The position numbers were made by a program, and so were the translations under genes. Positions 10,023 through 42,079 of a stretch of DNA of 42,079 nt are shown one piece after another; positions within the stretch are counted from its first letter, which is position 1, and each line of letters starts with the position of its first letter. The notes beneath the pieces were generated by a model that was not told where the DNA came from, did not search any database, and saw nothing but the letters and a program-made list of their open reading frames with translations. Origin of the DNA: Abditibacteriaceae bacterium (GTDB lineage Bacteria > Armatimonadota > Abditibacteriia > Abditibacteriales > Abditibacteriaceae); assembly GCA_031425655.1 (NCBI GenBank), contig JANPJS010000093.1, positions 1 to 42,079 of the forward strand. Reading direction: 5' to 3'.

Positions 10023-11753
10023 ATGTTTAAAACCATTTCGTCACACAAACTTCTTTTGCTTTGGGCTTTGAGTTTTCTCGCCTTCGCTGTGCCGTCGCAG
10101 GCGCAAACCGGTGACGCGCGGCTGAATCCCGAAGACGTAATCGCCATCATCGTGCAAAACCACCCGGAAATGAGCATTGACCCGGTGACGGTCGGCGCCA
10201 ATGGCGCCGTTCAAGCGCCGATAATCGGCCAGCTTTACGTTGCCGGCCAGACTCTCAATGAAGTCGCCGCTACCATTACGCAGAAGCTGCGCGTGCAACT
10301 GCGGAATCCGCGCGTCAACGTCATTTTGCGCCAGGCGCGTGCGGAACGCGTTTTCGTGCTGGGCGCGGTGCAAAAGCCGGGCGTTTACGATTTGCCCAAA
10401 GGCGGCGGAGTCGCCGAAGCGCTGGCCATCGCCGGAGGCGGCGCGGCCAACGGCGCTTTAGCCAGAGCGACTATCAAGCGCGCCGACGGCACGGTCGTTC
10501 CAGTTGATCTCATCAAGGCGGCGCGCCTGCCGGAAAACAACCTCGCGCTTCAAGCCGGCGATGTGCTGCTGATTCCCGAAATAACGCCGACACGCATCAC
10601 GATTCGCGGCGCGGTTGGCAAACCGGGCGTTTACGATATTGCCGACGGCGCTTCGATTCCCGTCAGCGAAGCGTTGGCTCTCGCGGGCGGTTCGGCTCCC
10701 AAAGCCGCGCTCAGCCGCGCGCAAGTCACGCGCGCCGATGGCACCACGGTTCCGGTTGACCTTTTCAAAGCGATTTCGCTGGGCCAGCCGGAAGCGAATA
10801 TCCTGCTGCAAAGCGGCGATATTTTAACGTTACCGACTGCCGCCAGCATTACAATCTTGGGCGCTGTGCAAAGGCCGGGCGTTCTCGATGTCGCCGACGG
10901 CGGTATGTCGTTAGCCGAAGCTCTGGGCTTAGCCGGCGGCTTAAATGTGCCGCCAACACAAGCGCGCATCAGCATTTCGCGCACCGGCGCCGATGGCCAA
11001 ACCCAGATTTCCAGCGTTGATCCGGTGAAGCTGCTCAGCCTGCGCGAAGCCGGGCAAAACCTGCGTTTGCAGGAAGGCGATTTGGTCAGCGTGTCCTCGA
11101 AAGAAGTGCAAACAGTGTTTGTCAGCGGCGAAGTCAGAACACCCGGCGCTTACGAAGTGCGCGAGGGCGAGAGCGTGGCCGAACTTATCGTGCGCGCCGG
11201 CGGCCCGACGCCTCTGGCTTCGCTCGCGCGAATTTCTGTTGTCAAGCGCGACGGCACGCCGCAAACCCTGAATCTCGCCGCGCCGCTCATCGAAGGCAGT
11301 GCCAAAGCGCCCCAATTTCCCTTGCAGCAGGGCGATTTCGTTGTCGTGCCGAAAAACAACTCCGTCGTGCTGGTGCTGGGCGCGGTGCAGCAACCCGGAC
11401 GCTATCCGATTCCCGAAACCGGCCCGTTCACTTTAGGCGATGCCCTTGCCGCAGCGGGCGGTGCCAGAGATCGCGCCAAAGTCAAGGAAATCATGCTGCT
11501 TCGCCAAGACGCGAGCATTCCCAGCACACCGGCAGTCACCACAAAAGGCTCGACAAATAAATCTTTCGTGCCGGGACAACCCGGATTGCAGCGCCAAATT
11601 GTCTCGGTGGAAGGCACGCAAAACGGCCAACTGGCGCTGAATCAGCCGCTGCTACCCGGCACTATCGTTTATGTGCCCGAAGGCAAGCCCACCGGCAGCG
11701 GCTGGAGCAACATTCTCAGCTCCATTTCTATCATATCCCGATTGTTTTTTTAA
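10023..11753 (+). CDS. Polysaccharide export protein (Wza/Poly_export domain plus multiple SLBB repeats)
   Basis: Signal peptide, L.PED.I..V..HPE Poly_export N-terminus, and repeated V.V.GAV..PG.Y...AL..AGG units (about 5). GGAGG RBS. Confidence 0.9.
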   Translation: MFKTISSHKLLLLWALSFLAFAVPSQAQTGDARLNPEDVIAIIVQNHPEMSIDPVTVGANGAVQAPIIGQLYVAGQTLNEVAATITQKLRVQLRNPRVNVILRQARAERVFVLGAVQKPGVYDLPKGGGVAEALAIAGGGAANGALARATIKRADGTVVPVDLIKAARLPENNLALQAGDVLLIPEITPTRITIRGAVGKPGVYDIADGASIPVSEALALAGGSAPKAALSRAQVTRADGTTVPVDLFKAISLGQPEANILLQSGDILTLPTAASITILGAVQRPGVLDVADGGMSLAEALGLAGGLNVPPTQARISISRTGADGQTQISSVDPVKLLSLREAGQNLRLQEGDLVSVSSKEVQTVFVSGEVRTPGAYEVREGESVAELIVRAGGPTPLASLARISVVKRDGTPQTLNLAAPLIEGSAKAPQFPLQQGDFVVVPKNNSVVLVLGAVQQPGRYPIPETGPFTLGDALAAAGGARDRAKVKEIMLLRQDASIPSTPAVTTKGSTNKSFVPGQPGLQRQIVSVEGTQNGQLALNQPLLPGTIVYVPEGKPTGSGWSNILSSISIISRLFF

Positions 11754-11781
11754 CCTGATTTGCATTGAGCAATCTCAAAAC

Positions 11782-11814
11782 AAACAACCCGCGCTATTCA
11801 GCGTGGGTTGTTTT
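11782..11814. terminator. Probable bidirectional intrinsic terminator
   Basis: AAACAACCCGCGCT-attc-AGCGTGGGTTGTTTT between convergent genes. Confidence 0.7.
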
Positions 11815-11869
11815 CATTTGGCGAATCTGGAAGGCAATTAACTCGGCTTGCTACCTACGGGAGTGCGAA

Positions 11870-12005
11870 GAGCGACTTCGTCGCTCCCGCCCCCACCACC
11901 TGCCCAGAGGGCGCCCGTCCCCCGGAGGGGGAGGAGCCGCGTTTTCTCAAGGATTTTTGCCCTGAAGAGCGCACTCCTCCCCTCCGGGGGAGGTTGGGTG
12001 GGGGC
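11870..12005. repeat. REP-like palindrome with a 20-nt cassette inserted in its left arm
   Basis: TTCG-loop hairpin at 11870-11886, then arms 11889-11936 and 11974-12005. The left arm has ACCTGCCCAGAGGGCGCCCG (11898-11917) where the right arm predicts CAACC. Confidence 0.85.
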
Positions 12006-12053
12006 AAAATGCGGCTCCATTATCTATCTTCAATAGACAGCAACTTGGATTAA

Positions 12054-12989
12054 TTACGCTCCGCCTTCGCGCAAAAATTCCTTGAGCGCAGCCAGAGCGC
12101 GGCGTTGGGCGCGCGAAACATACATTTGCGATACCTTCAGCTCGCGGGCGATATCGGCCTGGCTACGGCCTTGAAAATAAATCTCCTGCACCACGAGGCG
12201 CTGGCGTTGGGGCAGCATTTCGAGCGCGGCCTGAAGCGGCGCATAGTCGTGCCAACGCTGCAAATCAGGATCAGAAGCGCCAATGCTGTCGGCCAGTGAA
12301 CTGAGAGGGCCGCCTTCCTCCGAGGAACCCTGGTCGTCCAACGAGACCGGCTCAACGGTCTGGATCATTTCTAAAACTTCGATGACATCTTCGACCGGCA
12401 CGTTCAACGCGCTGGCGATTTCAGCGTAAGTCGGCGGGCGGTCGTATTGCTGCGTGAGTTGCTCGACGCGGCGACTGAGAACTTGATGCAATTCCTGCAT
12501 CCGGCGCGGCACGCGCATACCCCAACTTTTATCACGAAAATAACGGCGAATTTCGCCTAAGATCGAAGGCGTGGCGAAGGTCGTAAAACGCACGCCGCGA
12601 CCGGCATCGAAGTGGTCTACGGCGTAAATCAAGCCGATCATGCCCTGCTGCACAATGTCCTCGAACATTTCGCCCCGGTCGAGAAATCGTCGCGCCAATG
12701 ACACCACAAGGTTGCGATACATCAAAATGAGCTGCTCGCGGAGCGCCGGGTCGCCCGTAGCCCGCCAGCGCGCGAAAAGCGCATCGAACTCGGCGTGTGA
12801 GGCCGAAACAACGACGACGGCCTCACTGAATGGCGCTTCAGACGCCTCTACCGCCTCAACTTCAAGCGCCTGCGGCTTCACAATTGGCGAATCTTCGTCG
12901 CTTTCGGGCACTGCCGGAGGCGTGGCGCCGCGCTTACGGGAGGCCGGGGCCGGTTTGCGAAGTGGAATTTGGCGAGGAGAGCGAGTCAC
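12054..12989 (-). CDS. RNA polymerase sigma factor, SigB/SigF/SigG family
   Basis: LV.SLARRF, D..Q.G.IGLI.AVD.FD..RG.RFTTFATP.I.GEIRRYFRD.SW..RVPRR, and a C-terminal SQADIARELKVSQMYVSR helix-turn-helix. Confidence 0.93.
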   Translation of the reverse strand: MTRSPRQIPLRKPAPASRKRGATPPAVPESDEDSPIVKPQALEVEAVEASEAPFSEAVVVVSASHAEFDALFARWRATGDPALREQLILMYRNLVVSLARRFLDRGEMFEDIVQQGMIGLIYAVDHFDAGRGVRFTTFATPSILGEIRRYFRDKSWGMRVPRRMQELHQVLSRRVEQLTQQYDRPPTYAEIASALNVPVEDVIEVLEMIQTVEPVSLDDQGSSEEGGPLSSLADSIGASDPDLQRWHDYAPLQAALEMLPQRQRLVVQEIYFQGRSQADIARELKVSQMYVSRAQRRALAALKEFLREGGA

Positions 12990-15741: not shown

Positions 15742-15918
15742 AATTTAACCCCCTGCCCAGAAACCCCATCCCCGGCCCTTCCCCTTGATACGGCAAAGGG
15801 GAAGGGAGATCGACCGTTTTGGATTTGTGAAAAAGCGATAATTTTCCCAGAGTAGAAGAGTCTGAACTCCCTTCCCCTTTGCCGTATCAAGGGGAAGGGC
15901 CGGGGATGGGGTTAAATT
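15742..15918. repeat. Long REP-like palindrome (47-bp perfect arms)
   Basis: 15762-15808 is the exact reverse complement of 15867-15913. It overlaps the glcE-like stop, and the left arm extension is interrupted by 15 extra nt (15753-15767). Confidence 0.9.
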
Positions 15919-26480: not shown

Positions 26481-27182
26481 TTAAAACAAACTGCCTTGCT
26501 CATTCAATCGCTCAACGGCTTCAAGACAGGTTTCGTCGTCGTGTTGAGGCGCGTTGACGTAGCGCGAAACGGCATACGCTTCCATCGCTTCGGATGGATA
26601 TGCTTGCAGCATCGCCAATATCGCGTCGGTGTCCTTCAGTTCGGGGTCGAGCCACGCGGCTTCGTCTTCAGCGCGCAAAATCGCCGGCATTCGATTGTGA
26701 ATCGGAGCCATTAATTCGTTGGGTGGCACGGTGATAATCGCGCAGGTGCGCAGCGGGCTGCCATCGGGCGCTTCCCATTCTTCCCACAAGCCCGCGAAGC
26801 CAAAAAGTTCGCCGTCGCGCCGCCGAATGTGATGCGGAACGCGCCCGCCGGATTCCGCTTTCCATTCGTAAAAGCCGTCGCCCGGCAAAATGCAGCGGCG
26901 GCGTTTGAGTGCCTGCTTATAAGACGGCTTTTCCGCGATGGTTTCGGCTCGCGCGTTGATTAAACGATTGCCGATTTCGGGGTCCTTGGCCCAAAAAGGC
27001 ACCAAACCCCATTTCATGGCTTCCATCCAGCGCACGCCCGGCGTCGGGCTGTTGGCTACCACCGGAACGGCCTGCGCCGGCGCGACATTATAGCGCGCTT
27101 CAAGTGGAAACAGCACTTGCTGAACCGCGAATCGCTCGGCGACCTGCTCGGTGGAATGATGAAGCGTAAATCGTCCGCACAT
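26481..27182 (-). CDS. SOS response-associated peptidase (SRAP/YedK/HMCES family, abasic-site protection)
   Basis: N-terminal MCGRF, YNVAP, WGLVPFW, INARAET, RRC.....GFYEW, IHNRMP.IL. Confidence 0.95.
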   Translation of the reverse strand: MCGRFTLHHSTEQVAERFAVQQVLFPLEARYNVAPAQAVPVVANSPTPGVRWMEAMKWGLVPFWAKDPEIGNRLINARAETIAEKPSYKQALKRRRCILPGDGFYEWKAESGGRVPHHIRRRDGELFGFAGLWEEWEAPDGSPLRTCAIITVPPNELMAPIHNRMPAILRAEDEAAWLDPELKDTDAILAMLQAYPSEAMEAYAVSRYVNAPQHDDETCLEAVERLNEQGSLF

Positions 27183-29588: not shown

Positions 29589-30401
29589 TCAGTTGCGCAG
29601 ACTTTTTTCGCGCAGCAGAGCATCGGCCCAAACCGCGTCTTCAGGGCGCAGCGGCAGCGGCGGCTCGTTCTGATAATTGATGCGCCGCGCGAAATTTCCG
29701 GCTGCGTAACAGTGATCGAAAAGCGCTTGCAAATCCACTACGATGTCGCTGTCTTCGGGCAACAAAGGCACAGCGAAACGCGGCAGCCGCTGGCGCACGC
29801 TGCGCGCCCATACATCGTAAAGATAAGCGGTTGAGGCACGGTGCAAACACACGCAGTAATCGAAATTGCCGCGCGCGAGCAGCGACTCTCGCTCGACGGC
29901 GACGCTGTGCAATCCGCCGCGCAGCAGGTCTATTTCCAGTAAATGGGTGTCGCTGTCCAGCACTTGCTGCTGCTTTTTCACGTAAGAGTCGTGTCCGCGA
30001 TTGCCGCGTGTTTTATTGGCCGGACTAAGCACTTCGATGACGGTCACAACGCGACCTTCGTCGGCCACGGGCACAATTTCAATGAAAACTTCGCGCCGTT
30101 CTGCCGAATAACTCACACGATAAGGCTCATCACTGACGAGCGGCGGCGCTTCGGCCACGGCAACGCCGCCTTCGCTTTCGCCGCGCAGAGGATGCTGCAC
30201 AATCAGCACATCGGGATAAATCGTGCGCTCACGGTCGCCAATATCGGCCACAAAAAGCCGCTCGCCGATATTAGCGACGTAGTGAGAGGGCAGTTTCGCG
30301 TTGAGTTCATCGCCCAAATAGGTGATGAGACGCTGATGAACCGCTGGAAACCAGGCCGAGTGTTCGAGATAAGGATCCATTCCGGGAAACGGGCTGAGCA
30401 T
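29589..30401 (-). CDS. DUF4058 family protein (putative PD-(D/E)XK nuclease-like)
   Basis: M.SPFPGMDPYLE signature, PDV, IEVLSPANK, HLLEIDLLRGG, LP...VPL. Confidence 0.85.
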   Translation of the reverse strand: MLSPFPGMDPYLEHSAWFPAVHQRLITYLGDELNAKLPSHYVANIGERLFVADIGDRERTIYPDVLIVQHPLRGESEGGVAVAEAPPLVSDEPYRVSYSAERREVFIEIVPVADEGRVVTVIEVLSPANKTRGNRGHDSYVKKQQQVLDSDTHLLEIDLLRGGLHSVAVERESLLARGNFDYCVCLHRASTAYLYDVWARSVRQRLPRFAVPLLPEDSDIVVDLQALFDHCYAAGNFARRINYQNEPPLPLRPEDAVWADALLREKSLRN

Positions 30402-30419
30402 AAAAGACCTCCACGCATT

Positions 30420-31182
30420 TCACAGTTTAGTGCGCGCCGCAAAACAGGTCACGCCGCCAAAGTTGTAATCGAAAGCGCGCACGTCGCTAAAGCCGCATTC
30501 GCGTAATAAATGGATGAATTCCGCACGCGAATAAAAGCCGTCAACCGAAGCCGGCAAATACGAATAAGCCGAATTATGCTTGGATATTATGCGTCCCACG
30601 CACGGCAAAATACCTTTGAAGAATAAAGCAAAAATATGGCGCAGAAAAAACGAAGTCGGGCGCATAAATTCTAAAATTAAAACGCGCCCGCCCGGTTTCA
30701 AAACGCGATCTATTTCGCGCAAACCGGCCTGCGTATTTTCAAAATTACGCACGCCAAAACCCACGGTTACGGCATCGAAAAATGCGTCGTCAAACGGCAA
30801 AGCCAGCGCGTCGGCGAAGACGAAGTGGGGCTGGAGGCCGGGTGCCCTCTGGGCAGGTGCTGGAGGCTGGGAAGATTCCGCCTCCCGCCGTCCGCCTCCC
30901 GCCTCCCGCCTTCCGTCTCGCAATTTCCAGCATCGGCTCGGCGAAATCGGCGCCGGTGACGTGGCAGCGCGGCTGGCGGCGCGATATTTCAAAGGCCAAA
31001 TCGCCGGTGCCGCAGCATAAATCGAGAATATTTTCGCCGGCGCGCGGCGTTAATAAACGCACGGCGCGACGGCGCCAGCGCACATCCTGATTGGCCGATA
31101 ATAAATGATTTAACAGGTCGTAGCGTCCGGCGATGGAAGAAAACATCGCCTGCACGCTTTGCGAGGATTTATCAACGGGCAT
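30420..31182 (-). pseudogene. menG: Ubiquinone/menaquinone C-methyltransferase (UbiE/MenG) frameshifted within a repeat insertion
   Basis: 5' frame: VQAMFSSIA.RYDLLN.LLS...D.RWRR, LDLCCGTGD, DF...ML..ARRK. 3' frame: FVFADALALPFDD..FDAVTVGFGVRN, RVLKPGG, AYSYLPAS. The frames switch in the repeat tract at 30826-30915. Confidence 0.88.
30826..30915. repeat. Inverted heptamer arrays plus 20-nt cassette inside menG
   Basis: Minus strand: GGAAGGC GGGAGGC GGGAGGC GGACGGC GGGAGGC ... GCCTCCA GC[ACCTGCCCAGAGGGCACCCG]GCCTCCA GCCCCAC. The cassette is at 30839-30858. Confidence 0.9.
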
Positions 31183-41913: not shown

Positions 41914-42079
41914 TCACCTTACGCAGTGGGATGTGGTAGGCAGGCAAATTCAAGAAGCGCTGTCATTCTGAGTCCTGGGCCGTGGGCACCCGGACGGAGC
42001 TCGGGCACTGGGGTGGGGTTGGTGAGGGTGTGTGTGGAGGGTGTTACGGAGGGATTGTGGCGGGTGCCCACTGGGGAGG
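41914..42079. mobile_element. MITE-like element D (copy of element C, truncated, with cassette in both arms)
   Basis: TCACCTTACGCAGTGGGATGTGGTAGGCAGGCAAATTCAAGAAGCGCTGTCATTCTGAG matches 29365-29423. The rest aligns without gaps to the element C loop, with mostly N-to-G substitutions. Confidence 0.8.

Follow-up and report, generated by a model that had tools for sequence, protein, structure and literature searches.

A 20-base hairpin cassette that replaces five target bases in repeats and genes of Abditibacteriaceae, Chloroflexota and phages

Very short mobile elements known as SDRs occur in Nostocaceae, in which Elhai et al. in 2008 reportedly described SDR1-8, of 21-27 bases, inside heptamer arrays, mini-transposons and themselves, and with a conserved fold. 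To our knowledge, the movement of mobile elements shorter than 30 bases has gone unexplained since these Nostoc elements. The cassette considered here was met in a stretch of 42,079 nucleotides (the window), contig JANPJS010000093.1 of assembly GCA_031425655.1, from an Abditibacteriaceae bacterium (source genome, G000). It is, with high confidence, a non-autonomous and very small mobile element with many independent insertions, which replaces five target bases and has an exact right and an error-prone left junction. The closest known kind are the Nostoc SDRs, which passages of three papers present as very short dispersed mobile repeats of open mechanism (PMC5861425, PMC4390886, PMC3116915), with a precise insertion into HIP1 described for SDR5 in part of one of them (PMC4390886). 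Like the SDRs, the cassette is below 30 bases, dispersed, found in many unrelated contexts and nested in itself; it appears to differ in sequence and differs in the phyla that carry it.

At the focal locus the cassette lies at 11898..11917 (+); in it a variable base and the retained first target base precede a core of 18 bases. It sits in the filled left arm (11889..11936, +) of a palindromic host repeat, which pairs with an empty right arm (11974..12005, -) displaying the five replaced bases. The arms are identical except for 20 bases in the left and 5 in the right, just as a first-pass annotation of this DNA, made from the letters alone, had read them. The two exact copies that it listed, 11898-11917 (+) and 30839-30858 (-), were both confirmed, with 0.01 expected by chance. 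The second lies in a C-rich 7-mer array within menG, and its 5-base empty allele is present elsewhere in the genome. A Logan contig from run X1 spans 30000-30907 with 0 differences and bridges the menG copy (not the focal copy); this run contains 0.90 of the words of window positions 11600-12300 and may be the source sample, while runs X2, X3 and X6 gave no useful coverage of the source organism. The half copy that had been reported near 15751-15761, a truncated left half-cassette (15751..15761, +) in a second palindromic repeat family, is real and, by its sequence, looks like a filled site shortened by deletion. The annotation's copies at the contig end fared less evenly, both falling in an unreliable G-rich tail (41967-42079, 54% G; the long X1 contig ends at 41966) that is probably misread sequence. 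The one at 41973..41992 (+, 15/20) is probably a real but misread copy, because its host flank is filled at 23 other places; the one at 42061..42079 (-, 17/19) is a possible copy in the partner arm.

The same arithmetic holds throughout the source genome, which has 316 copies at up to 3 mismatches to the 19-base core, against 0 in the reversed genome. An empty allele was found for 183 of 313 testable copies. Five bases are replaced in 152 of the 183, six seem to be replaced in 22 (mostly a one-base-shorter cassette, again with five out) and other lengths in 9. A second method, with 363 tested, gave a net change of +15 in 131/161, of +14, which corresponds to the 19-base cassette form, in 21/161, and other values in 9/161. 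In 53 of 55 non-redundant rebuilt target sites the replaced stretch begins with C, and no consensus emerges beyond this. The hallmarks of miniature inverted-repeat transposable elements, target-site duplication and terminal inverted repeats, were not found: five bases are lost and none duplicated. Neither excision scars nor alleles with only the extra base (+1) were clearly seen. Thus the exchange of five bases for 20 in unrelated hosts, without target duplication, which the first-pass annotation had proposed from a few loci as the footprint of an unknown insertion system, extends to the whole genome and to Chloroflexota, and supports such a system. Deletion lengths are not variable at large (152/183 replace five), nor is the 20-mer confined to this stretch (316 copies), two of the outcomes that would have spoken against that proposal. 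The preference for C, the variable left junction, the 19-base form and the sister cassettes described below were not part of it.

The right junction is exact. The left junction has a variable extra base together with the first target base, which is kept, changed or lost. Over 126 sites the first cassette base was T 71, C 51, A 30 and G 4 times (A 71, G 51, T 30 and C 4 on the complementary strand), and it varies even within one host site. A first-base A follows a pyrimidine in 27/89 and a purine in 3/67 cases. The identity of the extra base is linked to that of the host base before it (p 0.002; 54 rebuilt sites, 10 positions tested), from which we infer that the extra base is made at each insertion and not inherited from the donor. 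In Chloroflexota the junctions were compiled for 162 contexts, of which 89 had a candidate allele (without G051; forms read by eye), and five-base replacement was again the common case. Where the form begins with TC or AC, the 5-mer that was replaced starts with C in about 20 of 20 clean rows; with TG it starts with G in 8/10, and with TA it mostly starts with G as well. Because the start forms track the target in this way, the second cassette base is the first target base, kept, transition-changed or lost. One host site has four left junctions, with the first base kept after A or after T, transition-changed, and lost. An A precedes 58 of 61 Chloroflexota TG/TA contexts, so that the left junction falls at C|T when the opposite strand is read.

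Of 24 family genomes, 13 have cassette matches, as against 0 of 16 genomes further away. Exact matching against GTDB contigs gave at least 103 loci, mostly Chloroflexota and Abditibacteriaceae among the matches listed; the few matches in coding DNA of other groups look like chance. Nine of ten genomes that were followed up have 69-146 copies each, the tenth has 3 and controls have 0. A Thermomicrobiales clade carries the core at 17-146 copies. When the pattern was relaxed, one Peptococcaceae genome yielded 27 copies, one Herpetosiphonaceae genome 100, an additional Armatimonadota genome 26, and two Verrucomicrobiota genomes 3-4. The spread is patchy: 2/351 sampled genomes of the phylum of G043 have matches, and 15/61 relatives of this genome do, with 17-89 copies in the first 11 listed of the 15. 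Two of the genomes in the set (G051, G404) are unpublished. At five Chloroflexota loci (L056, L062, L090, L120, L168) the cassette has gone into its own loop.

Among the hosts are 7-mer arrays, the cassette itself and several palindrome families that are unrelated to one another, and several positions are used within one host. By a crude 12-mer measure, 263/316 copies have a repeated flank, versus 31% of non-coding C positions. Unique and coding sequences are hit as well. A tRNA-Arg gene (G000:C61) is disrupted by the cassette and now 87 bases long, two Calx-beta genes of the source genome have it inserted in frame, IS630- and IS5-like transposase frames carry it (by eye), and phage genes have it in both orientations at 12 loci on 8 viral contigs, again with in-frame copies. 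Because of these targets, repeats are preferred or tolerated and not required. The suggestion that insertion is structure-targeted finds weak support: target pairing is slightly raised (0.62 vs 0.53, p 0.03), and unique phage, tRNA and transposase sequence is also used. No transcription-strand bias was found with crude gene calls (64 vs 57).

The 18-base core has a 4-bp stem, a 3-base loop, a 4-base 3' bulge and a terminal G; comparison of cassette types suggests a short stem with a four-base 3' bulge and a closing pair. Sister cassettes of 20-24 bases, with 11, 9, 7, 6 and 3 exact copies, occupy the same kinds of site in the source genome and have the stem-base pair swapped and the loop longer. 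At the stem base, 474 of 523 distinct contexts have the pair G-C, 35 have A-T and 14 another combination; the changes are compensatory, as in the conserved fold of Nostocaceae SDRs. Beneath the four invariant pairs, the pair that closes the stem also tolerates G-T, and element size across types is 19-24 bases. With the REP and REPIN elements moved by TnpA-REP (RAYT), as presented in parts of PMC8266576 and PMC3116915, the cassette shares a short, single-strand bulged hairpin, non-autonomy and targeting by IS110. Unlike them, it has no GTAG or CGTC tag at the hairpin foot (position table of 316 copies), no doublets of its own and no adjacent RAYT that was found, and it inserts into other repeats with a loss of five bases. 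Ssn nucleases with their SRM/NTS repeats (PMC11893778, in part) find a parallel in one major host repeat, which flanks Ssn-like GIY-YIG genes in the source genome; such repeats are, however, hosts and not the cassette, which uses several positions per host and many unrelated hosts. A search of 200 kb of the Nostoc plasmid pNPUN01, a weak test, gave no similar repeated cassette. No description of the cassette family was found in the literature searched, subscription papers, including Elhai et al. (2008), and supplements being outside its coverage, and the portions consulted of PMC3184786, PMC3733652, PMC2884548 and PMC11893778 have nothing on it.

The source genome has six Y1 and four GIY-YIG matches. 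No cassette was seen beside Y1 genes in the flanks shown for the six matches. Two RAYT-like proteins (C37, C12) were considered as candidates and set aside, since their presence (11 and 18 of 27 genomes) extends to non-carriers and several carriers lack them. Six genes are flanked by cassettes, all apparently ordinary apart from one GxxExxY gene. Searches for shared proteins covered a small part of each genome, roughly 1 Mb in Chloroflexota and phage loci and 0.4 Mb in G451 and other loci, and gave no candidate; the shared proteins were housekeeping ones, GxxExxY, another IS110 and one BREX-like Lon protease. Among the matches listed of 189 non-cassette right-end matches, sought for a long autonomous form, only IS110 recurred. 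The excision scar of a larger element, which the annotation had offered as one origin of the cassette, is unlikely, since no long autonomous form other than IS110 was seen.

We tentatively favor a single-stranded hairpin on which a strand-transfer enzyme, HUH type being the most plausible, acts in trans in a cut-and-join reaction with an untemplated base. The enzyme would cut the strand complementary to the written cassette twice, five bases apart, the left cut being chosen by one or two bases, after G in Abditibacteriaceae and also at C|T in Chloroflexota. The right flank would be joined exactly to the cassette. The cassette's free 3' end would be extended by a base opposite the first target position and by a further, untemplated one, and only then be linked to the left flank. 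Any copy lying in another repeat would afterwards multiply together with its host. This reading is drawn from the fixed five-base loss, the A-first order on the complementary strand and the position of C|T in Chloroflexota. The order A, G, T, C is typical of untemplated or abasic-site insertion. Parts of PMC8266576 describe cleavage by TnpA-REP at C|T and its redirection to GA/GT by guide changes, and the Chloroflexota left junction matches that cleavage position. Several points weigh against cut-and-join transfer. We know of no HUH insertion that deletes target bases or adds a base. Replication-strand bias is inconsistent (82 vs 63 in the source genome, p 0.13; 18 vs 4 among singles of G047:C8 and about even in G011, the latter two counted by eye), hairpin stability is not exceptional (z -0.7 and -2.0), and sites inside one host family are not independent of each other. 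A HUH/RAYT-type enzyme had been named at first pass, yet neither of the two RAYT-like proteins profiled, of the six Y1 proteins, tracks the cassette across 27 genomes, and no mover enzyme has been identified.

An IS110-like enzyme was another early suggestion, and an IS110 is indeed present, sitting in the cassette loop with 10 left and 8 right junctions at contig ends of the source genome (C15, C23, C58, C71, C97, C101, C154, C205, C248 and C302; the element is also seen at L371), the element body being collapsed in the assembly. Two of these, C97 and C101, are sister copies of the focal left-arm site, with the cassette present and IS110 inside. The junctions have a duplicated two-base CT core and short subterminal inverted repeats, the element encodes a C-terminal PF02371 domain, and its left end is a long non-coding hairpin (z -2.1) with guide stretches that match both cassette strands in the manner of bridge RNAs. 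In passages of PMC11208160, bridge RNAs of IS110 have their target guides in a non-coding end, IS110 excision is scarless, and IS621-type elements that target REPs share the CT core, the subterminal inverted repeats, the guide-bearing left end and PF02371; what sets the present element apart is that its target is a 20-base mobile cassette itself nested in other repeats. On these grounds it might be thought that the recombinase, together with its bridge RNA, is what creates or moves the cassette, or that the cassette is a scar of its excision. This is most improbable, and IS110 was rejected as the mover. The junction is confined to the source genome among 27 family genomes, of 5 cassette-rich genomes G047 alone has a close homolog, and the matches in Chloroflexota have 27-48% identity. 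Among 80 metagenome relatives, 7 lie in cassette-like right flanks; others, with different guides, occupy other repeats. IS110 excision is, moreover, scarless (passages of PMC11208160) and does not account for the five bases lost outside the cassette. IS110 is a parasite of the cassette, inserting into it rather than making it, and a lineage retargeted to the cassette is separate evidence that the cassette is real and common. The clade as a whole retargets among attC-like and palindromic repeats.

Two further chemistries bear on the left junction. In one, an oligonucleotide would be chemically linked at or next to the target base, a repair nuclease would cut four bases downstream, and a translesion polymerase would cross the non-coding link. 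Such lesion bypass would yield an extra base with the first base kept, changed or lost, and fits the four left junctions at one host site, the dependence of the extra base on its neighbor, and the preferred A insertion and one-base deletions at abasic sites described in part of PMC4167244. It is nevertheless unlikely, with no enzyme candidate found and no alleles with only the extra base evident. The branched chemistry itself is of a type of which no example is known to us. The other route, less likely again, is a tiny RNA copied by a reverse transcriptase into a staggered cut, leaving the 3' junction exact and the 5' junction with an untemplated base. Target-primed reverse transcription gives an exact right and a variable left junction, a pattern that fits the cassette, as does the tolerance of G-T in the stem-closing pair. 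But the transcribed strand is not favored, and PF00078 (RVT_1) has no match in three cassette-rich genomes (G000, G001, G002) and only a weak, stop-containing one in G003, as against 21 of 27 family genomes with a match (metagenome-assembled genomes 79-97% complete, this being the one reverse transcriptase family searched); a reverse transcriptase, and with it the RT-linked enzyme of the annotation, was set aside as the mover for this reason. Host-repeat amplification explains part of the copy number, in line with the 263/316 copies with a repeated flank and with three genomes (G166, G009, G018) that have essentially one to a few host sites each. That it accounts for the whole, as a few ancient events spread by amplification and gene conversion, or that the cassette is a library or assembly artefact, is scarcely credible given at least 55 distinct reconstructed sites in the source genome, copies in tRNA, Calx-beta, transposase and phage genes, lineage-specific variants with compensatory changes, and an insertion sequence evolved to target the cassette.

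Taken more broadly than the cut-and-join scheme, it is possible, though less likely than not, that repeats, transposons, tRNA genes and phage DNA receive, at nearly any C (or AG) site, a structured oligonucleotide of about 18 bases written by an undescribed enzyme system, which removes a fixed four to five bases and leaves an untemplated base. If true, this would be a new DNA-mobility chemistry that at least three phyla share, possibly the long-missing mechanism behind SDR-type elements; the cassette would be categorically new if the chemistry proves distinct. With reconstructable events in the hundreds that follow one fixed rule, with several phyla holding both carriers and their close relatives that lack the cassette, and with an IS110 whose bridge RNA seeks it out, the mover should be findable by comparative genomics and its chemistry testable with short oligonucleotides. 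An enzyme that swaps five bases for a short hairpin of chosen design would also be attractive for tagging.

The copy in menG bears on coding effects. The menG/ubiE methyltransferase gene (30420..31182, -) is the only close copy found in the source genome and is out of frame across inserted 7-mer arrays, split over two frames with or without the 15 bases added by the cassette. Its orthologs are intact in G001 and G002, with a short in-frame repeat at that site in G001, and broken in G003 by a different repeat at the same spot. The frameshift is therefore not caused by the cassette, the frame being broken regardless and another repeat breaking it in G003. The expectation that +15 keeps the frame and adds a peptide fails for menG but is borne out by the in-frame Calx-beta and phage copies. 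The menG/ubiE site is a repeat hotspot within a quinone gene.

The source genome is very repeat-rich, with 152 kb masked by 16-mers of at least 6 copies, many 7-mer arrays, 9 GxxExxY genes and attC-like repeats. It has arrays of atypical tRNA genes (C61:85-845, also C217, C249 and C317), which are probably mobile; Rfam gave only tRNAs and weak chance matches for L357 and L364. Contig ends C63, C126, C133, C134, C135, C144, C213, C248 and C148 point to another collapsed multi-copy insertion sequence, IS3-like by eye. In the window, 26481-27182 has a SRAP/HMCES-like gene, recognized by eye from its N-terminus. Ssn-like small GIY-YIG genes stand beside their hairpin repeat in C253 (about 240-400) and at C256:25891-26106; the one in C253 is interrupted by a stop, and its repeat bears fused cassette halves.
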